In this document: positions 20,534 through 29,071 of the stretch, piece after piece
How positions within the stretch are numbered: position 1 is the first letter of the stretch
Layout of the letters: each line of letters begins with the position of its first letter
Origin: an uncultured Candidatus Saccharibacteria bacterium
Lineage (GTDB): Bacteria > Patescibacteriota > Minisyncoccia > Phycocordibacterales > UBA9973
Direction: 5' to 3'
Length of the DNA stretch: 51,100 bases
NCBI GenBank assembly: GCA_964596605.1
Contig: CAZQUJ010000001.1
Span: forward strand, 1 to 51,100
The notes under the pieces: model-generated
Told to the model about the DNA's origin: nothing
What the model saw: the letters and a program-made list of their open reading frames with translations, nothing else
Databases searched by the model: none
Made by a program: the position numbers and the translations under genes

Positions 20534-20604
20534 GCGGGTATGGTATAGTGGTAGCATGCGACCTTCCCAAGGTTGAGACGCGAGTCCGATTCTCGCTACC
20601 CGCA
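20534..20604 (+). tRNA. tRNA-Gly (anticodon CCC)
   Basis: Acceptor stem gcgggta/tacccgc, anticodon loop ttcccaa, T-loop tccgattc. No encoded CCA. Confidence 0.9.
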
Positions 20605-20616
20605 CAGATGGTTTTA

Positions 20617-20625
20617 TGCTATAAT
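20617..20625 (+). promoter_or_regulatory. extended -10 promoter candidate (TGcTATAAT)
   Basis: tgctataat lies 39 nt upstream of ATG 20665. Confidence 0.35.
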
Positions 20626-20664
20626 GAAAAAAGTTAAATATTATTAATTAAATATATTAAAAAT

Positions 20665-20901
20665 ATGAAAAAAGTTACAATATATTCTAGCCCAACATGT
20701 CATTTTTGCCACATGGTTAAAGATTTCTTTATAGCTAACGGTGTTGTTTTTGAAGATTTTGATGTTTCAACAGACTTAGAAAAAAGAAAAGAAATGGTAG
20801 AAAAGAGTGGGCAAATGGGTGTTCCAGTGACGATAATAGATAATGAATTAGTTGTTGGTTTTGACAAAGAAAAACTAAGTAAATTACTTGATATTAAATA
20901 A
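20665..20901 (+). CDS. glutaredoxin-like protein (thioredoxin fold, NrdH/YruB-like)
   Basis: 78 aa with a CHFC redox motif near the N-terminus (IYSSPTCHFCHMVKDF) and a GVPVTIIDNELVVGFD C-terminal motif. Confidence 0.85.
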   Translation: MKKVTIYSSPTCHFCHMVKDFFIANGVVFEDFDVSTDLEKRKEMVEKSGQMGVPVTIIDNELVVGFDKEKLSKLLDIK

Positions 20902-20924
20902 AGTAATATATTGTTTGGAATAAT

Positions 20925-20950
20925 AAAGACACTCAAATAAGAGTGTCTTT
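20925..20950 (+). terminator. stem-loop after the glutaredoxin-like gene
   Basis: aaagacactc-aaataa-gagtgtcttt, a perfect 10-bp stem. The trailing T-tract is short. Confidence 0.5.
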
Positions 20951-20956
20951 ATACAA

Positions 20957-21031
20957 GCCCCCGTAGTTCAATGGATAGAACAGTTCCGTCCTAAGGAATA
21001 GATGTAGGTTCGATTCCCGCCGGGGGCACCA
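20957..21031 (+). tRNA. tRNA-Arg (anticodon CCT), CCA encoded
   Basis: Acceptor stem gcccccg/cgggggc, D-arm gttcaatggatagaac, anticodon loop gtcctaa, T-loop ttcgatt, ending acca. Confidence 0.88.
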
Positions 21032-21513: not shown

Positions 21514-22587
21514 ATGAATAAATCGAAAAAAATAAAAGTTGCACTTGTTGGCATAGGAAATTGCGCAAGTTCTCTTGTCCAAGGTGTCTCATTTTACTCA
21601 CAAGCAGAAAATGTAACGATTGGGTTAATGCACCCAAATTTTGCCGGATTTAATGTGTCTGATATTGAGTTTGTCGCCGCGTTTGATGTTGATAAAAGAA
21701 AAGTGGGGAAAGATCTCGCAGAAGCAATATTTCAAAAACCTAATTGCACAACGAAGTTTCAAGAAGTTGGGCTATTAAATATTAAGGTATTAAAGGGACA
21801 TGTTTTAGATGGTGTAGCACCTCATATGCAAGAATATTTTATTGTCGATGATAAACAGGAACCAGTTGATGTTGCGCAAGAATTACACAAATGCGGTGCA
21901 GAAATGCTCATCTCTTATTTACCAGTGGGTAGTGCTGAAGCGTCAAGATTTTATGCTAACGAAGCAATAAGGGCGGGTGTTGGATTTATTAACGCCATTC
22001 CTGAATTTATTTGCTCTAAGTCAGAATGGATTGCCAAATTTAAAGAAAAAGGGATACCCTGTGCTGGCGATGATATAAAATCTCAATTTGGTGCGACTAT
22101 CCTGCATAGAACTGTGACAAGATTAATTGAAGATCGTGGGCATAAGATTGATAATACATACCAATTAAATATCGGTGGAAATACAGATTTTTTAAACATG
22201 AAAGATGAAAATCGACTCAGTTCAAAGAGATTATCAAAAACGAATGCGGTAACCTCAATACTTGGAGAAAAAGAGTTTGGAGTTCGAATCGGTCCAAGCG
22301 ATTATATACCCTATCTTAATGACAATAAAATTTGCTATATAAATGTTAAGGGTAAGCAGTTTGGAGGATTACCTTTTGAATTAGATATTAAATTGAGTGT
22401 TGAAGACAGCCCGAATAGTGCTGGGGTTATGGTAGATGTTATCAGGGCCATGAAGGTTGCTATTGATCGTGGAGTTTCAGGAAATTTAGGGGCAATAAGC
22501 GCATATTATTTTAAATCACCAGAAGTTCAATATAGAGACGATATTGCCAGGACGATTGTTGAAGATTTCATCAATTTTAAGCAATAA
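21514..22587 (+). CDS. ino1: myo-inositol-1-phosphate synthase (inositol-3-phosphate synthase, bacterial/archaeal short type)
   Basis: The N-terminal Rossmann motif KVALVGIGNCASSLVQGVSFY is characteristic of short MIPS enzymes. Also present: GDDIKSQFGATILHR, NIGGNTDFLN, and SKRLSKTNAV (the conserved SK...SK region). Confidence 0.8.
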   Translation: MNKSKKIKVALVGIGNCASSLVQGVSFYSQAENVTIGLMHPNFAGFNVSDIEFVAAFDVDKRKVGKDLAEAIFQKPNCTTKFQEVGLLNIKVLKGHVLDGVAPHMQEYFIVDDKQEPVDVAQELHKCGAEMLISYLPVGSAEASRFYANEAIRAGVGFINAIPEFICSKSEWIAKFKEKGIPCAGDDIKSQFGATILHRTVTRLIEDRGHKIDNTYQLNIGGNTDFLNMKDENRLSSKRLSKTNAVTSILGEKEFGVRIGPSDYIPYLNDNKICYINVKGKQFGGLPFELDIKLSVEDSPNSAGVMVDVIRAMKVAIDRGVSGNLGAISAYYFKSPEVQYRDDIARTIVEDFINFKQ

Positions 22588-22593
22588 AGTTTT

Positions 22594-23814
22594 ATGATTT
22601 ACGTACACAAAAAAGAATTATCAGAGTCAGAGTATGAGTTCGTAGAACGTAAGGGCATTGGACATCCAGACACCTTATCTGATGCTCTTGCCGAGTTTTT
22701 ATCAGTTAAATACTCAAACTATACTCTGAAAAATTTTGGTGCAGTATTACATCATAACTTTGATAAAGTTGGGCTACTCGGTGGTGCTTCATTTGTAAAA
22801 TTTGGCGAGGGATACCTAACAAAACCGATAAGAGTATTATTAAATGGTCGCGCTTCAACAAAATTTGGAGATAAAAATATCCCAGTTGAGGACTTGTTAA
22901 AATCTTGGGCAGGCGAGTTTCTCTTAAACAAATTTAGAAATCTAATAAAAGAAAGTGACTTAGAGATCCATTACAATTTAAGTACACAAAGCAGTCCTGG
23001 TAAAACCGAAGAATTTAAGTCAACGAATACCCCCCGAAAATTTTGGTTTGAACCAAGAAATTTTGACGATCTTCCGGAAATTAAAAAACTATTTTCTAAT
23101 GATACTTCCTTGGGTGTGGGTTATGCTCCTTATTCTAAGTTAGAGAAACTTGTTTTAGATATTGAAGGAGTCCTAAACTCTGATAGTTTCAAAAAGGATC
23201 ATCCGTGGATAGGATCTGATATTAAAATAATGGGTACGAGGCACGGCCATCAGTTTGGTGTGACTTTATGTATACCACAAATAGCCAACTATGTGCATTC
23301 AGTTGAGGAATATAGACAAAATTTAGAGCAGGCCAAACAATTTATTTTCAAGATTTCTCAAAATATTGGAATAAATGGCCTCGAACTATCGTGTAATACT
23401 CGTGATAATTTAGAAACAGGGGAACTTTATCTTACAGCGATCGGTTCATCGATAGAAAGTGGTGACGAAGGTTTGGTTGGCAGAGGAAATAGAGTAAACG
23501 GGATAATTTCGCCCACGAGACTTATGAGTATGGAAGGGGCTTGTGGTAAAAATCCTGTTTATCATATTGGTAAGATTTACTATGTAGCCGCCAACGAGAT
23601 TAGTAAAAAAATTTTTGAAAAGTTTGGAATTGCGAATGAAGTCTCTTTAATTAGCCAAAGTGGTCGAGATTTACTTGATCCATGGAAGACATATGTTACT
23701 TTATACAATTCAAATATAGGTGAAGAACAGGTTCGGATTTTTGTTGAAAATGAACTAAGGAATATTCCGGAAATAACTAAAAACCTATTAGAGGATAAAT
23801 TAAGGCTATTTTAA
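22594..23814 (+). CDS. archaeal-type S-adenosylmethionine synthetase (MAT, AdoMet_Synthase family)
   Basis: FVERKGIGHPDTLSDALAE...FGAVLHHNFDKVGLLGGAS...VLLNGRAS closely parallels the archaeal MAT N-terminus (VERKG.GHPD..CD....FG..LHHN.D.V.LVGG....LL.GRA). It does not resemble bacterial MetK. Confidence 0.8.
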   Translation: MIYVHKKELSESEYEFVERKGIGHPDTLSDALAEFLSVKYSNYTLKNFGAVLHHNFDKVGLLGGASFVKFGEGYLTKPIRVLLNGRASTKFGDKNIPVEDLLKSWAGEFLLNKFRNLIKESDLEIHYNLSTQSSPGKTEEFKSTNTPRKFWFEPRNFDDLPEIKKLFSNDTSLGVGYAPYSKLEKLVLDIEGVLNSDSFKKDHPWIGSDIKIMGTRHGHQFGVTLCIPQIANYVHSVEEYRQNLEQAKQFIFKISQNIGINGLELSCNTRDNLETGELYLTAIGSSIESGDEGLVGRGNRVNGIISPTRLMSMEGACGKNPVYHIGKIYYVAANEISKKIFEKFGIANEVSLISQSGRDLLDPWKTYVTLYNSNIGEEQVRIFVENELRNIPEITKNLLEDKLRLF

Positions 23815-23818
23815 TGTT

Positions 23819-24943
23819 ATGGAAAAGATGCTTAATCAAGAAAAAGAAATAACAAGACTGGAATATTTAACTACCCATGTTGGACTAATTAAACAACTTG
23901 ATGGAAAATATTTGCTTGCTGAAAGCGTGTATTCAGAAGACATTCAAAATGAAAGTTCGTTAGAACACATACCCTTAATTAAGTCAGATGAAGTGATTAG
24001 GCCAGAGGGAGATACTACCATGCTTACTTCAGCTGGTATCCAGCATCTTGAAACTCTTGAACGTGACAAAATTAATTTAGAAAGTGAGAAGTTTAAAATT
24101 GCACAACCAGTTGTTCGTAGTCAGTTTATGGATAAAATCAAAGAAGGTTATTCAACGGCTTTTATAGATGAATCTGTCGTTCAACTCGGAGTATCTGATG
24201 AAGTTTTTTTTGGTATGTGTAAGCAAATGATCATTGATTCATTGAACCATGACGAAGATATACAAAAATATTATCTAACAATTGATACCCAAGATGATCG
24301 TTGGGGTCAAAAAAAGTTCACCAAATTAGTCATCACTTTATATTATGGCGGGAACGAAGTATCAGAAGGTGTGTATATAGATAAATTTCCTAAAGTTAAT
24401 GGGCAGACTGTTTCAGTTGCCGAGATAACCCACGGTGCTGAAAGATATAATTGGATTCACAGAGAAAATAAAGACCAACCATATTTTATTGATTTTGAAG
24501 AATTCTACCATTCTGATAATAAAGATAATGTTGCAAAAATTATAGATCCCATCAGAACAGCTACATTGATGATCATGCAAGGGGTTGTTCCATCCCATAA
24601 GGATCCTGGGTTTAGATTAAGACAGCTGATTAAAAGATTTGTGGAAAGAAACACCGAGACTTCTTTTTCTGAAGATAGACTTTTGGATTTATCATATGAT
24701 TTTTGGATAAGAAATAGTGTTGAAGGAATTGTTGATAAAATTGGGGTTCGTGAATCGTTAAAAAAAGAAATGATGCGTGCTCAAAATGTATATATTGTTG
24801 GCCACATAGAAAGAGATATGAACAAAAAAATTAAGGTTGATGTGAATTTAAGTACAGATGAATTTATTAAAAGAATCTATTCTTCATCTCCAGAAGAGAT
24901 TATTGAGATAGTAAAAAGTATTAATTTAAAAAAATATGAGTAA
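23819..24943 (+). CDS. stand-alone, diverged alanyl-tRNA-synthetase catalytic-core paralogue (class IIc aaRS-like; candidate amino-acid ligase)
   Basis: 374 aa. Three stretches align with AlaRS landmarks. GDTTMLTSAGIQHLE matches NDPTLLFTNAGMNQFK. IAQPVVRSQ matches TSQRCVRAG. IIDPIRTATLMIMQGVVPSHKDPGFRLRQLIKRFVER matches [37 protein letters not shown]. No tRNA-recognition, editing or C-Ala domains are present. Confidence 0.6.
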   Translation: MEKMLNQEKEITRLEYLTTHVGLIKQLDGKYLLAESVYSEDIQNESSLEHIPLIKSDEVIRPEGDTTMLTSAGIQHLETLERDKINLESEKFKIAQPVVRSQFMDKIKEGYSTAFIDESVVQLGVSDEVFFGMCKQMIIDSLNHDEDIQKYYLTIDTQDDRWGQKKFTKLVITLYYGGNEVSEGVYIDKFPKVNGQTVSVAEITHGAERYNWIHRENKDQPYFIDFEEFYHSDNKDNVAKIIDPIRTATLMIMQGVVPSHKDPGFRLRQLIKRFVERNTETSFSEDRLLDLSYDFWIRNSVEGIVDKIGVRESLKKEMMRAQNVYIVGHIERDMNKKIKVDVNLSTDEFIKRIYSSSPEEIIEIVKSINLKKYE

Positions 24944-25613
24944 GCTTTTTTTAAGTGGCGGTGGTGATGTAGATATGTCGTATTCGTTTGACAGCCTATT
25001 CTTTGATTCATTGCCACAGGCTGCGAATATACTTTATATTCCCGTTGCTATGGCGACCACTATGACTAAGACAGAGGTAGCTTTCGATTGGTTTTCAAAA
25101 TTGATTTCACGCCATTCAAGCAACAACAGATACCTAGATTTTACGATATGGAATATCGGGGATTCTTTGCCTATTTTGCATAATTATGATGCTGTATATG
25201 TTGGTGGTGGAAATACATATAGACTCTTGATGGCATTAGAAAAATCAGGAATGTTCGATGCTTTGAAAAAATATATCAGAAATGGTGGTATTTACTATGG
25301 TGGAAGTGCTGGTGCTGTGATTGTTGGTAAAAACTTACGAACTGTAGAGGAAGAAAATTTAGAAAATTATTCAAAGCATGATGGTATGAATTTAGTTGAA
25401 GATCTCTCTATATTTCCGCATTTTTCTGATAGTGAAGAGCAAAAAAATACCATTAGGAACATTTGTGGCAAATATTCCTTAAAGGTAGTCGCACTTCCCG
25501 AAAATTCTGGTCTTATTCTCGATACACAAAGTATAGGTGTTCACGGTAATATATATTTATATGAACAAGAGAAAGAAACTATTTTTTATACATCTGGGCA
25601 AATTATCAAGTAG
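24936..25613 (+). CDS. peptidase S51 family protein (dipeptidase E/cyanophycinase-like, class I glutamine-amidotransferase-like fold)
   Basis: YVGGGNTYRLLMALEKSGMFDALKKYIRNGGIYYGGSAGAVIVG contains the GGGNT and GxSAG nucleophile motifs of the S51 family. It overlaps the previous gene by 8 nt. Confidence 0.7.
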   Translation: MSKLFLSGGGDVDMSYSFDSLFFDSLPQAANILYIPVAMATTMTKTEVAFDWFSKLISRHSSNNRYLDFTIWNIGDSLPILHNYDAVYVGGGNTYRLLMALEKSGMFDALKKYIRNGGIYYGGSAGAVIVGKNLRTVEEENLENYSKHDGMNLVEDLSIFPHFSDSEEQKNTIRNICGKYSLKVVALPENSGLILDTQSIGVHGNIYLYEQEKETIFYTSGQIIK

Positions 25614-26763
25614 CTCCGGTCATACAGCGCGATTACGCTATGAATTAAAGGACATTAGCAAGATAGCAGAAGTTTCGATTCTGTCTTTAGCAAATGAGTC
25701 TGATCAATCTTTCCCTGGTAAATATCCGAATATACATTTCTATGTTTTACCAATTAAGTTCAATGGCTGGAAAGTTGTTAATTTGAGTCGTGTTGTAGAA
25801 CAGATAGATAGAATAATCAGCTTTTGTAAGCCAGATATTGTTATTTTGTGCATTGAAATTTGGGATTTAATTTTAGAATTGCATAAAAAAATATCTGACA
25901 AAGTAGCATTTTGTGCCATATGTCACGCAATGCCATTCTTAGGTTCACCCTTAAATCCAACAAAATCCTTTGAATCAGATGTAAGGAATTTTACTAATAA
26001 GCAAATACCAAAATACAGAAAAAACTATATTATCAAACATTACAAAGAATTTTCGAAGGTTATAAATTCTGGTTTATTAATTGCAAATAATGCATCTGTT
26101 GCTTTCTATTTTAAAAATTATTTCCCGAGATCATTGTTTTGGAAACAAGTGCCTCATGTTACGGTTGATCCACTAAGAATGCCCAAAACTTTAGATATTA
26201 GCTATGATTTTTGTTATATGGCGAGAATGGAGAAAGGAAAGGGGGTGGAATATCTGCAAGATTTGTTTGGTAAAATTTCAACCAAACTGGGTAGGAAAAT
26301 TAGGGTGGCACTCATGGGCAGGACAGATGATAAGTACTCACAAGAAAAACTCAGGAGCCTGCTTGAAAGTAAAAGTGAAGCTTACTCAATTCGGTTTTTT
26401 GGCTGGGCGGATGATAGAACTAAAGCTAAAGTATTAAGTAAAAGCGGTTGTTTTATTTACCCATCAATTTACGATAATTTTCCGACAGTAGTTAATGAAG
26501 CCATGGCTCATGGTTTGCCTGTGGCAATGTGGAATAATCTTTTTTATAGAGTTAATTATTCTGGCATAAAGTCTGTATCTGTCGCTATTCCTTTTAGTGT
26601 TGAACATTTAGCTTCGGTGGCTGTGAATTTATTAAAAAGAAAGTCTACTCTAAGTCATCATTCTATAGAATATATAAAGAAAAGTGGTGGCTCCAGATCA
26701 GTTGCTAAAGATGATCTCATGCTGTTTGATGAGATAATTAAACATAATGAAAGAAATAAATAG
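25561..26763 (+). CDS. family 4 (GT-B) glycosyltransferase
   Basis: The N-terminus is LFFIHLGKLSSSSGHTARLRYE. The C-terminal donor-binding region is GCFIYPSIYDNFPTVVNEAMAHGLPVA (E-x7-E type). I take ATG 25561 as the start (the track gives 25537). Either start overlaps the 3' end of the S51 gene, by 53 nt from 25561. Confidence 0.75.
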   Translation: MNKRKKLFFIHLGKLSSSSGHTARLRYELKDISKIAEVSILSLANESDQSFPGKYPNIHFYVLPIKFNGWKVVNLSRVVEQIDRIISFCKPDIVILCIEIWDLILELHKKISDKVAFCAICHAMPFLGSPLNPTKSFESDVRNFTNKQIPKYRKNYIIKHYKEFSKVINSGLLIANNASVAFYFKNYFPRSLFWKQVPHVTVDPLRMPKTLDISYDFCYMARMEKGKGVEYLQDLFGKISTKLGRKIRVALMGRTDDKYSQEKLRSLLESKSEAYSIRFFGWADDRTKAKVLSKSGCFIYPSIYDNFPTVVNEAMAHGLPVAMWNNLFYRVNYSGIKSVSVAIPFSVEHLASVAVNLLKRKSTLSHHSIEYIKKSGGSRSVAKDDLMLFDEIIKHNERNK

Positions 26764-28129
26764 TAACTTTGAAAAATTTTTTCCGAAAGAGAATGTTATT
26801 GTAATGCTCCACGCTCATGCTGATGATGAGTCATTTTTGTCTGCCGGTACTATAAATGAATTTATAGTGCGTGGTTATAATATTTTACTAATTTACTTAG
26901 CTGCAGGTCTTGTTGAAAATGAACAAGAGACACTTCTCAGGCAAAAAGAGCTTTCTATGGCATTAGAAACACTAGGTGCACATAATGTAAAGTTTCTTAA
27001 ATATTGCGAACCAAAATACAAAGGGAGTGGCGCCCCTCTTTATTTGCAATCAATACGAGAAGTATCAAACGAAATAATTAAATTTCTTAATAAAGAAAGA
27101 ATAAAAAAATATATACTTTTTTCATACGATAAAAATGGTGGTTATGGGAATAAGGATCATTTAGTAGTACATAAGGTAGGAAGATATCTGTTTAAAAAAT
27201 CATCGGTGATTAGTTCACTATTTGAGGTAACTATTTCAAGGGATATGTATACAGATTGGTTTTCAAAAGAATCGGGTAGGGTTTCTGAAACTTATTTACC
27301 AAAACTAAGTTATTGGTCTACAGAATTTGGACTAACAGACGAAGAAATCAATTACATATACGTACTTAATTCTAAACAAATTTGGTTAAAGAAAAAAGCT
27401 CTTATTAAACACGTCTCGCAAATAAAGAATACAGAATTTCCTCTGTCTCTTACTAATACCGATTTTATAAAATTGTTTGGTAGAGAATATCTTGCGTACG
27501 TTAATAGATCGATTCTGCAAGATATCGTAAATTTCACCGAAGCCACCACAGGACAAATACAAAGCAAGTGCCCCACGCGAGCTTGTCGAGCACTGGCGAG
27601 ACGTGGTCAGACGTTTCGTTCAAAATGCGTTCGAGCAGAGTCGTATAATTCTACAAATATGAATGAAAAAGATTTTAATCTAAGTATTTTTGATGGAAAG
27701 GGATGGTCAAAAATATCTAAATCTCTGTTTGAAATAGAAAAAGAGTGTTTTTTAGATTTGTCTTTTTCTTGGAAAGATTTTTGTAATTATTTTTCTAATC
27801 CTAAAATAATTGCAGTAATATTAAGATATAAAAATGACATTATTGGATTCTCCTTTGGTTTTCCTTCTGGTGATGATTCTTTTTTTATTTACGATACTGC
27901 TATAAAAAAAGAATTTCAGGGCAGGGGATTAGTTTCTCTAATTATGAATTTCTTGGAAAAGAAACTAAAGGAGGATGGCTACAAATATATAGAAAGGGAA
28001 GCTGATGTTGATAATGGGTATGCTGATAAAATTCGCAGACATTATAAAGGAAGAATAATAGAGGAAGGAATTCCTCATAATTCTATTTATTCAAAAGGAA
28101 AACAGGTATTTTTTAAGATAGAGATTTAG
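26747..28129 (+). CDS. PIG-L/LmbE-family N-acetylglucosaminyl deacetylase (aa 1-~270), whose frame reads through IR-R into the downstream GNAT gene
   Basis: VIVMLHAHADDESFLSAGT (the AHPDDE-type zinc motif) and YGNKDHLVVHK (the HxDH-type motif). Residues 275-296 (CPTRACRALARRGQTFRSKCVR) are encoded by IR-R. There is no stop codon before the GNAT domain, so the 460-aa ORF is either a real fusion or a read-through artefact. Confidence 0.7.
   Translation: MKEINSNFEKFFPKENVIVMLHAHADDESFLSAGTINEFIVRGYNILLIYLAAGLVENEQETLLRQKELSMALETLGAHNVKFLKYCEPKYKGSGAPLYLQSIREVSNEIIKFLNKERIKKYILFSYDKNGGYGNKDHLVVHKVGRYLFKKSSVISSLFEVTISRDMYTDWFSKESGRVSETYLPKLSYWSTEFGLTDEEINYIYVLNSKQIWLKKKALIKHVSQIKNTEFPLSLTNTDFIKLFGREYLAYVNRSILQDIVNFTEATTGQIQSKCPTRACRALARRGQTFRSKCVRAESYNSTNMNEKDFNLSIFDGKGWSKISKSLFEIEKECFLDLSFSWKDFCNYFSNPKIIAVILRYKNDIIGFSFGFPSGDDSFFIYDTAIKKEFQGRGLVSLIMNFLEKKLKEDGYKYIEREADVDNGYADKIRRHYKGRIIEEGIPHNSIYSKGKQVFFKIEI
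27571..27634. repeat. inverted repeat, right copy (IR-R)
   Basis: ccccacgcgagcttgtcgagcactggcgagacgtggtcagacgtttcgttcaaaatgcgttcga, which is the reverse complement of IR-L with about 84% identity over the ungapped 55-nt core. Confidence 0.85.
27659..28129 (+). CDS. GNAT-family N-acetyltransferase (possible independent cistron from an internal ATG)
   Basis: The C-terminal 156 aa of the long ORF carry an acetyl-CoA motif-A-like segment, IKKEFQGRGLVSLIMNFLEKKLKEDGYKYI (Q/RxxGxG/A). TATAAT at 27644-27649 lies 9 nt upstream of ATG 27659. The composition drops back to flank-like AT-richness. Confidence 0.6.
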   Translation: MNEKDFNLSIFDGKGWSKISKSLFEIEKECFLDLSFSWKDFCNYFSNPKIIAVILRYKNDIIGFSFGFPSGDDSFFIYDTAIKKEFQGRGLVSLIMNFLEKKLKEDGYKYIEREADVDNGYADKIRRHYKGRIIEEGIPHNSIYSKGKQVFFKIEI

Positions 28130-28460: not shown

Positions 28461-28533
28461 GCTTGGGTAGCTCAGTTGGTAGAGCGCTCCCCTGAAGAGG
28501 GATAGGTCGGCAGTTCAATTCTGCCCCCAAGCA
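28461..28533 (+). tRNA. tRNA-Phe (anticodon GAA)
   Basis: Acceptor stem gcttggg/cccaagc, D-arm tagctcagttggtagagc, anticodon loop ctgaaga, T-arm ggcagttcaattctgcc. No encoded CCA. Confidence 0.9.
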
Positions 28534-28545
28534 CAGAATAAAAAA

Positions 28546-28570
28546 CACCTCCGATTAAAATCGGAGGTGT
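28546..28570. terminator. bidirectional intrinsic terminator (tRNA-Phe and convergent hsp20)
   Basis: acacctccgat-taa-atcggaggtgt is a perfect 11-bp stem. An A-run lies on its 5' side and a T-run on its 3' side, so it can terminate either strand. Confidence 0.8.
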
Positions 28571-28573
28571 TTT

Positions 28574-29071
28574 TTAGATTGATTTAATTTTTAATTTAGT
28601 TTCTCTGTTTTTGTCTAGTTTAGGAAGTTTGATAATCAACAATCCATGTTTCTCTATCGCTTCAGCCTCTTCTGGATCAACTTCTTCTGGAAGGGAAATA
28701 GTTCTAGAAAATGAACCCCAATAAAGTTCTTTAACGAAATAGTTATCTTTTTGGATAGACTGATTTTCTTCTCTCTTTCCTTTGATGGTAACCATATCTC
28801 TGGTTATTGTTATATTTAAATTATCTGGTTGAACTCCAGCTACCATTGTTTGAACGATAATATCAGAAGGAGTTTGATACAAATCAACAGTTAGTTCAGC
28901 TTCCTGTTCTTCTTCCCATTTTTCTTCTTTTTCTACTTCTATATTTTTTGATTCACTGACAGATTTAGAGTTTTTTTTGCTACTTGATTCCTCGTATAGA
29001 TCATCATCGAGTTCGTCTTCGTCAACTCTAATATTTCCTGTAAGTCTTTCTAAAAATGATTTTTTCTTCAT
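28574..29071 (-). CDS. small heat-shock protein (Hsp20/alpha-crystallin family)
   Basis: The alpha-crystallin domain runs LTVDLYQTPSDIIVQTMVAGVQPDNLNITITRDMVTIKGKRE...FSRTISLPEEVDPEEAEAIEKHGLLIIKLPK. The N-terminal region is acidic. Confidence 0.85.
   Translation of the reverse strand: MKKKSFLERLTGNIRVDEDELDDDLYEESSSKKNSKSVSESKNIEVEKEEKWEEEQEAELTVDLYQTPSDIIVQTMVAGVQPDNLNITITRDMVTIKGKREENQSIQKDNYFVKELYWGSFSRTISLPEEVDPEEAEAIEKHGLLIIKLPKLDKNRETKLKIKSI

Follow-up and report, generated by a model that had tools for sequence, protein, structure and literature searches.

What does the front half of an alanyl-tRNA synthetase (AlaRS) do when it is encoded on its own, in a row of inositol and amino-sugar genes? 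The question is raised by a 51,100-nucleotide stretch of DNA (the window; G+C ~32%) from an uncultured Candidatus Saccharibacteria bacterium (GenBank assembly GCA_964596605.1, contig CAZQUJ010000001.1, positions 1 to 51,100). One of its open reading frames (ORFs), with an ATG start, encodes an AlaRS-like protein of 374 residues (Table 1). To our knowledge, before AcmF was described in 2024, AlaRS was seen as an aminoacyl-tRNA synthetase (aaRS) with almost no free-standing paralogues of its catalytic domain. An earlier note on this DNA, made from the letters alone, had called the protein a free-standing, strongly diverged paralogue of the AlaRS core. We find that it is homologous to AlaRS and belongs to a large family. 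Because this stand-alone front half always lies beside a modified gene resembling S-adenosylmethionine (SAM) synthetase, we consider its most likely role to be the joining of a small amino acid to a small molecule, outside translation.

The window protein on its own misses the thresholds of the curated AlaRS families. The Pfam model tRNA-synt_2c (PF01411) matched residues 235-281 only (E = 7.5e-5, 21.9 bits against a gathering score of 30.3), the NCBIfam alaS model (TIGR00344) gave 22 bits against 457 (E = 4.3e-5), and a single-sequence phmmer search of the PDB gave E = 0.055. When a profile of 24 family sequences was searched against the PDB, 15 sequences matched, all of them AlaRS (best E = 2.7e-9). 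An alignment of 162 family members was aligned by hhalign over its full length to residues 1-461 of E. coli AlaRS, with a probability of 98.7% and E = 2.7e-15. The comparison of a predicted structure that the earlier note had suggested pointed to the same enzyme. The AlphaFold2 (AF2) model (mean pLDDT 86.5, pTM 0.86) placed AlaRS catalytic fragments at Foldseek ranks 1-27 (E 7e-12 to 2e-8, TM 0.52-0.62), and the next matches were alpha subunits of glycyl-tRNA synthetase (GlyRS), the other enzyme of subclass IId. These data indicate that the protein is homologous to AlaRS; the signal appears only at the level of profile and structure, and there it is far beyond chance. The description as a diverged, free-standing paralogue of the AlaRS N-terminal part is thus borne out. 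All of the peptides quoted in the earlier note are present in the translation (GDTTMLTSAGIQHLE, residues 64-78; IAQPVVRSQ, 94-102; STAFIDESVVQLG, 112-124; ITHGAERYNWI, 203-213; IIDPIRTATLMIMQGVVPSHKDPGFRLRQLIKRFVER, 241-277), and the three landmarks that it had matched to AlaRS by eye are recovered in the hhalign alignment.

We examined which residues of the catalytic core are kept. Equivalences were read from the hhalign alignment with the E. coli numbering of the literature, and conservation was counted by column over the 162 family members. Within an AlaRS-type fold, the arginines of class II motifs 2 and 3 are both present. The motif-1 region reads TTxFTSAGIQ. Motif 2 is made up of QPVVR, in which R100 corresponds to E. 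coli R69, and of STAF on the second strand, which carries F115; R100, F115 and Q96 are each found in 162/162 members. The earlier note had taken motif 2 to be replaced, and the alignment corrects this: its loop is merely shortened relative to AlaRS, as is the loop before motif 3. Motif 3 itself is G206-x-E208-R209 (GLER in AlaRS), with R209 in 162/162. W162 (AlaRS W170) is kept in 156 of the 162 sequences and E180 (E209) in 128.

The alanine site has changed. At the positions of the canonical trio Asn212, Asp235 and Gly237, the window protein has E183, E202 and T204. Across the family, the first position is Asp or Glu in 137/162; the second, which in AlaRS is the Asp that holds the alpha-amino group, is acidic in every member (Asp in 132, Glu in 30); and the third is Gly in 119/162. 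V185 (V214) is Val or Ile in 83/162 and Asn or Ser in 40. A pocket for a small side chain, formed by W162, V/I185 and G204, is retained. A check of the ATP- and alanine-binding residues, proposed in the earlier note, therefore has two outcomes: R100, F115 and R209 are constant, whereas the alanine site of the window protein is altered (N212 to E, D235 to E, G237 to T). Because the residues that line the adenine-stacking, 5'-group and alpha-amino site stay constant among members that are only ~20% identical, the column counts argue that this site is under strong selection. The N-terminal ~60 residues are unrelated to AlaRS. Many members of two other subgroups, A3-type (e.g. P0162; L033-L084) and A4, have a CxxC...CxxxxC motif of zinc-ribbon-like appearance where the window protein has its N-terminal ~55 residues.

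The protein does not end with the catalytic core. The tRNA-recognition domain, which had been reported as absent, is present: by hidden Markov model (HMM) and hhalign alignments, residues ~235-374 match the helical tRNA-recognition (Mid) domain of E. coli AlaRS (~270-403). Relative to AlaRS, conservation is highest here, in a segment that includes the PSN loop and the basic GYxLRxxxKR helix and that in the window protein contains DPIRTATL...GVVPSH(K)...GFRLRQLIKRF. The AF2 model is helical across residues 235-367. Conserved positions are D243, R246, L250, G264, R268 (146/162), K272 (138/162) and W296. The Asn of PSN is kept in 79/162 members and is His in 41/162, among them the window protein (His260). 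The net charge of the domain has a family median of +3, compared to -2 for the E. coli region. The protein stops at residue 374, which aligns near E. coli residue ~403, and neither the editing domain (PF07973, tRNA_SAD) nor C-Ala gave a match in it, consistent with the earlier note. Compared with the solved catalytic fragments of AlaRS (E. coli 1-441, PDB 3HXU; A. fulgidus, 3WQY), the window protein has the same fold and the same order of motifs 1, 2 and 3. It shares their amino-acid-pocket Trp and acidic residue and their helix-loop-helix with PSN and GYxLRxxxKR. It differs from them in having Asp or Glu for Asn212 across the family, in lacking the editing and C-Ala domains, and in its low identity to solved AlaRS structures (~14%).

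How widespread is this protein, and what accompanies it? An exhaustive profile search of 1.84 billion representatives returned 200 clusters at E<1e-30 and 359 at E<1e-10 (clusters at 50% identity), and nearly all members are 320-430 residues long. A search seeded with actinomycete members gave 469 further 90% clusters, every one labelled 'hypothetical protein', from Streptomyces, Nocardiopsis, Kitasatospora, Amycolatopsis, Streptosporangium, Actinocatenispora and others. Phage and plasmid collections gave no match by tblastn.

For the gene neighbourhood, ~110 loci were fetched and their ORFs clustered; the metagenome scan was seeded with subgroup A3. We counted partners at the 37 loci with at least 4.5 kb of flank on both sides. 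A gene for a paralogue of archaeal-type methionine adenosyltransferase (MAT) was present at 37/37, a Peptidase S51 family gene at 30/37, and a gene for seryl-tRNA synthetase (SerRS) at 13/37. By clade, the window-type loci (n = 17) have MAT-like, S51 and SerRS genes in 17, 16 and 0 cases, the A3-type loci (n = 15) in 15, 14 and 8, and the actinomycete loci (n = 5) in 5, 0 and 5; the actinomycete MAT-like count was taken from gene tables, since one gene lies just past the distance cut-off. Therefore, the invariant functional unit is the AlaRS-like gene with the MAT-like gene. S51 is its usual companion, and a private SerRS is a frequent one. Counted over all loci, a SerRS gene lies in or beside the module at 31 loci from several divergent lineages, with SerRS identities of 36-100%; each of the 5 actinomycete operons examined has one. 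In two loci (L065, L098), the SerRS gene has a few tRNA-Ser genes nearby.

The earlier note had placed the gene in a sugar-inositol operon. As a description of the window this holds. The gene row at 21514-28129 on the plus strand is tightly packed, the MAT-like stop codon is followed after 4 nt by the AlaRS-like ATG, and the AlaRS-like stop and the S51 ATG overlap by 8 nt. The AlaRS-like gene is translationally coupled with its row neighbours, among which are the inositol and amino-sugar genes. As a conserved context, however, the sugar-inositol genes do not hold, the constant partner being the MAT-like gene and the usual one S51. GT4 and PIG-L occur at 16-17 of the ~110 loci (GT4 at 16) and INO1 at 7, all within the window's own clade.

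Elsewhere, the accessories vary: glycosyltransferases, phosphatases of the PHP, HAD, IMPase and His_Phos types, methyltransferases, a carbamoyltransferase, radical-SAM genes and an amidohydrolase. These point to a decorated small molecule. The AlaRS-like domain is also found naturally fused to S51 (P0175), to GT4 (P0159) and to a methyltransferase (P0171), and several clades have the MAT-like gene on the other strand. The actinomycete operon has a fixed order: (APH), MAT-like, APH/fructosamine-kinase-like, His_Phos, SerRS, GT4-like, AlaRS-like. At one locus (L081, 3408-8164), a DegT/StrS-type aminotransferase and a GFO/IDH/MocA oxidoreductase are encoded between the MAT-like and AlaRS-like genes; in aminoglycoside pathways, such a pair makes aminocyclitols from inositol. 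Two further loci carry other synthetase-related genes. A GlyRS alpha-beta fusion lies between the AlaRS-like gene and glycosyltransferases at a locus without S51 (L016, 9024-12080), and a 458-residue class I GluRS-like protein is encoded downstream of S51 and a methyltransferase at another (L008, 10530-11906).

The constant partner has itself been remodelled. The MAT-like protein has the archaeal MAT fold, and its matches in the PDB are solved MATs (E = 1e-74). Of the positions that do not vary among three solved archaeal MATs it retains 74, and the ATP and metal motifs GHPD, NDTS, GRGNR and GKNPVxHxGK are among them. The methionine side is different. In 58/58 MAT-like partners, GxGSxDLV gives way to a longer segment with an insertion of ~13-25 residues, of the form SPGKTEE...RKxWFEPR or GPGVVY...NERQFFFE, and the Ile of SQIG (I351 of M. 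jannaschii MAT) is Ser or Met in 58/58, so that the methionine-side signature of archaeal-type MATs is missing. In all, 38 archaeal-invariant positions have changed in concert, L147 and I351 (M. jannaschii numbering) among them. These two are the only positions that differ between PDB 7P82 and 7P83 in the printed alignments, and we take them to be the residues mutated to widen the S-alkyl pocket. By sequence, the MAT-like genes linked to the cluster (the window and ~75 related loci) form a subfamily of their own. Because the methionine site is remodelled while the ATP and metal motifs are kept, the MAT-like protein would still bind ATP and adenosylate something other than plain methionine. The S51 protein is closest in the PDB to Lmo0363 and PepE. 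Its Ser124, His162 and Glu189 are kept in 75-77 of 77 partners, and with this intact triad it is predicted to be an active serine hydrolase or acyl-transferase.

Which known system does this arrangement resemble? The earlier note had expected an AlaRS-core example to be new, and AcmF, from ascamycin biosynthesis in Streptomyces sp. 80H647 and described in 2024, precedes it with the same architecture: it is a truncated AlaRS-like protein that has no domains besides those for aminoacylation and tRNA recognition (PMC12945691). AcmF uses Ala-tRNA from the AlaRS of its cluster, AcmD, to acylate 5'-O-sulfamoyl-adenosine held in the adenylate pocket, and the hydrolase AcmE takes the alanyl group off again (PMC12945691). 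It carries N219Q and D232E at the equivalents of N212 and D235 and is reported, in a review that does not list the residues concerned, to have lost most of those for ATP binding and alanine activation (PMC12945691). The window protein has the same two domains, keeps the motif 2 Arg as AcmF does, and is likewise substituted at both positions (Glu and Glu, compared with Gln and Glu in AcmF). Like AcmF, it is encoded with a hydrolase, here S51 with its intact triad, and in many relatives with a dedicated aaRS. The conserved helices that bind the acceptor stem are another parallel. The AcmF acceptor is a 5'-modified adenosine, and the neighbour gene here encodes a MAT-like adenosyltransferase, an enzyme whose chemistry makes 5'-substituted adenosines. 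The two systems also differ. The family here keeps the motif 3 Arg and the adenylate-site residues invariant, and its D235 position is still Asp in 132/162. The partner aaRS is SerRS and not AlaRS, the hydrolase is S51 and not an alpha/beta-hydrolase, and the acm cluster contains nothing equivalent to the MAT-like and glucosamine-inositol (GlcN-inositol) genes. This likeness is drawn from the published description of AcmF.

By analogy with AcmF, we tentatively propose that the protein is an aminoacyl transferase or ligase that uses an aminoacyl-tRNA donor to place Ser, Ala or Gly on a small molecule; this is our leading reading, although we hold it with less than even confidence. In this view, an AlaRS paralogue that lacks the editing domain would have left translation for small-molecule biosynthesis and would be an active enzyme. 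The retained AlaRS pocket would hold an adenosine-5'-X ligand beside a small amino acid, and the protein also keeps the basic helices with which AlaRS grips the acceptor stem of its tRNA. The small aminoacyl group would be taken from aminoacyl-tRNA, charged in many relatives by the SerRS of the same cluster, and passed to a nucleophile of the acceptor in the adenylate pocket. That acceptor would most likely be an adenosyl compound made by the MAT-like adenosyltransferase. The S51 hydrolase would then process or shuttle the aminoacyl product and, in the window's clade, INO1, GT4 and PIG-L (with GNAT) may contribute a GlcN-inositol unit, adding or supplying it much as happens in mycothiol biosynthesis. 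The remodelled MAT-like partner, the natural fusions, the other aaRS genes in some clusters and the translational coupling in the window are further points in its favour.

Several observations weigh against this AcmF-like proposal. The arginines of motifs 2 and 3 are absolutely kept, which fits the use of ATP equally well, and AcmF reportedly lost most of its ATP-binding residues. The spacing of the site residues differs (R93, F104, E216, Q219 and E232 in AcmF; R100, F115, E180, E183 and E202 in the family). SerRS was linked at 0/21 loci of the window's clade with flanks of at least 2.5 kb, and a tRNA scan of 40 loci found no consistently linked tRNA. In the pair of residues that reads G3:U70 of tRNA(Ala), the Asn is His260 here and the Asp, from the YDTYGFP motif, has no confidently aligned counterpart. 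Finally, PIG-L makes a free amine, which is an obvious candidate for the acceptor in place of the MAT-like product.

That amine is at the centre of the closest competing explanation, in which the protein would be an ATP-dependent amino acid:amine ligase, a class II analogue of MshC. It would itself adenylate a small amino acid and pass it directly to the GlcN-inositol amine unmasked by PIG-L, and GNAT would then N-acetylate the result to give a mycothiol-like aminoacyl-GlcN-Ins. The class II ATP-site signature is conserved (R100, F115, E180, G206/E208/R209), and the window operon holds four of the five mycothiol-type steps (INO1, closest to the mycothiol_INO1 model; GT4; PIG-L, closest to MshB and Mca; and GNAT), among which the AlaRS-like protein is the only candidate ligase. 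As in the MshA, MshB, MshC and MshD pathway, an aaRS paralogue stands beside inositol-phosphate synthase, GT4, PIG-L and GNAT, and the logic would match: make GlcNAc-Ins, deacetylate, aminoacylate, acetylate. In relatives, phosphatases occupy the same position (IMPase in L004; PHP, HAD), the oxidoreductase of inositol-dehydrogenase type and the DegT aminotransferase of L081 would likewise create an amine, and the fusion of AlaRS-like and GT4 domains fits as well. There are also precedents, namely MshC, the SerRS-like amino acid:carrier-protein ligases and AsnA (PMC2922099). However, MshC is a class I enzyme derived from CysRS, whereas the window protein is class II and derived from AlaRS, and mycothiol synthesis involves neither MAT-like nor S51 proteins. 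Only one clade has the sugar genes as accessories: GT4, PIG-L and INO1 are not found in the A3-type or actinomycete clades, in which the AlaRS-like gene persists, and GNAT is unique to the window. With GlcN-Ins genes at so few of the ~110 loci, GlcN-Ins cannot be the general acceptor of the family. An MshC-like ligase also leaves unexplained why the tRNA-recognition domain is the best-conserved segment, why the MAT paralogue is constant and why SerRS recurs. We regard the MshC-like ligase as possible but doubtful, and rank the AcmF-like transferase slightly above it on account of these three unexplained features and because most of the family lacks the GlcN-inositol genes.

The remaining explanations fare worse. 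The protein might be a subunit without catalytic activity that binds a ligand or tRNA and serves to regulate or scaffold the MAT-like enzyme, in the way that HisZ, a paralogue of HisRS and a known regulator of this kind, does for HisG. Strict co-occurrence with the MAT-like gene and translational coupling would fit such a subunit. It is nonetheless improbable, because residues of the catalytic site, beyond those of the surface, are invariant at ~20% identity, the fusions are to S51, GT4 and a methyltransferase and not to MAT, and the MAT-like gene changes strand in several clades. Still less probable is a true tRNA-charging enzyme that would load a non-canonical amino acid (e.g. a small one derived from SAM), itself formed out of the MAT-like product, so that another transferase could use the charged tRNA. 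The adenylate-site residues and the basic tRNA-recognition-like domain are both kept, and AlaRS accepts azetidine-2-carboxylate, which is derivable from SAM (PDB 5v59 is among the structural matches). Against this, no conserved transferase of the Fem, MprF, CDPS or LanB type that uses aminoacyl-tRNA is encoded nearby, no dedicated tRNA is linked, and the protein stops near E. coli ~403; in classical studies, E. coli AlaRS fragments as short as ~403 residues reportedly fail to aminoacylate. The earlier note had named a split alaS as the finding that would overturn its view. Split alaS genes exist in Nanoarchaeum, and a canonical alaS was found neither in the 51-kb window nor in any of the fetched flanks. 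An N-terminal piece of a split or degenerate alaS serving translation is nevertheless highly improbable, given the low identity to AlaRS, scores below the Pfam and NCBIfam thresholds and the substituted alanine site. In addition, the family sits inside accessory operons of Streptomyces, Nocardiopsis and other actinomycetes with complete genomes, and none of the ~110 loci has an AlaRS C-terminal half in the vicinity.

Other biosynthetic relatives of synthetases show where the AcmF-like proposal has further parallels. In the AbmF/AbmK system of albomycin (SB-217452) biosynthesis, an aaRS-like enzyme couples serine to an amino-nucleoside; the serine comes from a SerRS of the cluster, which also confers resistance (PMC9032320). 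Some variant clusters here share with abm the cluster SerRS and genes for methyltransferases, a carbamoyltransferase and radical-SAM proteins. On the other hand, AbmF is termed an aminoacyl-tRNA synthetase and is not described as AlaRS-derived (PMC9032320), the thiosugar and siderophore genes of abm are not present, and the carriers here are mostly bacteria of the candidate phyla radiation (CPR). HisZ, AsnA, EpmA/PoxA and the SerRS-like amino acid:carrier-protein ligases are likewise free-standing class II cores with a new acceptor or a regulatory role, but none of them is derived from AlaRS or linked to a MAT paralogue or S51. Adenomycin, which combines adenosine, inositol, an amino sugar and serine, was considered as a possible type of product, but we do not use it as evidence.

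The coordinates of the AlaRS-like protein, its domains and the other genes of the row are given in Table 1.

Table 1. Genes of the row and domains of the AlaRS-like protein, in window coordinates.
Feature	Coordinates	Strand	Assignment and support
INO1 (myo-inositol-phosphate synthase)	21514..22587	+	Pfam Inos-1-P_synth, E 2.8e-33
MAT-like (archaeal-type methionine adenosyltransferase paralogue)	22594..23814	+	Pfam AdoMet_Synthase, E 4.8e-106
AlaRS-like protein	23819..24943	+	Truncated AlaRS paralogue: aminoacylation core and helical tRNA-recognition domain
Class II catalytic core	23996..24520	+	Residues ~60-234; hhalign and column counts
Helical domain	24521..24940	+	Residues ~235-374; HMM and hhalign alignments to E. 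coli AlaRS 270-403
Peptidase S51 family serine hydrolase	24936..25613	+	Pfam Peptidase_S51, E 1.5e-25
GT4 glycosyltransferase	25537..26763	+	Pfam Glycos_transf_1, E 1.3e-15; weak GT4-conflict match
PIG-L family de-N-acetylase (MshB-like)	26747..27500	+	Pfam PIG-L, E 1.6e-14
GNAT acetyltransferase	27659..28129	+	Pfam Acetyltransf_1, E 6.3e-8, residues 327-424

The sugar genes of the window resemble mycothiol genes at the family level only, since their scores against the Msh equivalog models all fall under the cut-offs: INO1 against NCBIfam mycothiol_INO1 gave E = 2.8e-129 and PIG-L against NCBIfam MshB gave E = 9.7e-12. GT4, which starts at 25561 in public records, is a candidate MshA-like enzyme, and its sequence had no match in the PDB. 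GNAT is in frame with PIG-L. PIG-L homologues at other loci are ~250 residues long, and GNAT is probably a separate gene that starts at M305 (ATG 27659); tblastn found no homologue of it at the other fetched loci. The join between the two is a GC-rich stretch of ~110 nt (27540-27650), unusual for an AT-rich genome, which matched no Rfam family and showed no excess folding energy (z-score -0.31).

The first terminator-like site on the plus strand of the row is a weak one with a 5-bp stem (27593-27610) inside this spacer. The sole strong one has a 17-bp stem (28539-28576) and follows tRNA-Phe. The operon is bracketed by tRNA genes, tRNA-Gly(CCC) and tRNA-Arg(CCT) upstream (20534-21031) and tRNA-Phe(GAA), followed by this terminator, downstream (28461-28576). 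The flanking genes encode LepA, an FtsB/DivIC-like protein, Hsp20 and ValRS. Since these are housekeeping genes, the window cluster lies in no obvious island of this CPR-like genome. The actinomycete operon, by comparison, sits in defence or mobile islands. It adjoins a Dpd-type 7-deazaguanine/DndB system in Streptomyces sp. NBC_01396 (L113), a type ISP restriction enzyme in Nocardiopsis metallicus (L115), and an SNF2/PLD helicase with Dnd-associated genes in Solihabitans fulvus (L029), and lies among RHS toxins and transposases in Actinocatenispora thailandica (L114). PADLOC found nothing meaningful in the window operon, one actinomycete operon and one A3-type module; it has no model for the operon, and we rejected the idea of a catalogued defence system.

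Biosynthetic paralogues of aaRS are already known, including, with AcmF, one derived from AlaRS. Our literature search for the gene combination or for named AlaRS paralogues returned AcmF only, and we found no description of this AlaRS-like family, of its obligate MAT-like partner, of its linkage to S51 and SerRS, or of its breadth from CPR bacteria to Streptomyces. The 2010 survey of aaRS-like proteins by Aravind does not cover it (PMC2922099). The finding points to a large family, derived from AlaRS and as yet nameless, that has co-evolved with a neo-functionalised paralogue of archaeal-type SAM synthetase. The clusters of this family number in the hundreds and come from CPR bacteria, from further uncultured lineages and from many actinomycetes in culture.

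A bolder and rather unlikely extension of the AcmF-like proposal is that the two enzymes share one chemistry, so far unrecognised and conserved from CPR bacteria to Streptomyces. The re-tooled MAT would adenosylate a non-methionine substrate, and the AlaRS adenylate pocket would bind the S-adenosyl (sulfonium) product and couple to it a seryl or alanyl group delivered by tRNA. The change from Asn to Asp or Glu would suit a positive charge at the usual position of the phosphate. If this is true, the resulting aminoacyl-adenosyl metabolites would form a new class. They could be antibiotics that resemble aaRS inhibitors, or antiviral effectors, since the operons of actinomycetes include a SerRS of their own and are located in defence or mobile islands. 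If the AcmF-like model is true, the family would represent a new route to aminoacylated small molecules, possibly aminoacyl-nucleosides or mycothiol-like compounds. It would also give a handle on the secondary metabolism of CPR bacteria, and the product could be sought in cultured carriers such as Streptomyces sp. NBC_01396, Actinocatenispora thailandica and Nocardiopsis metallicus.

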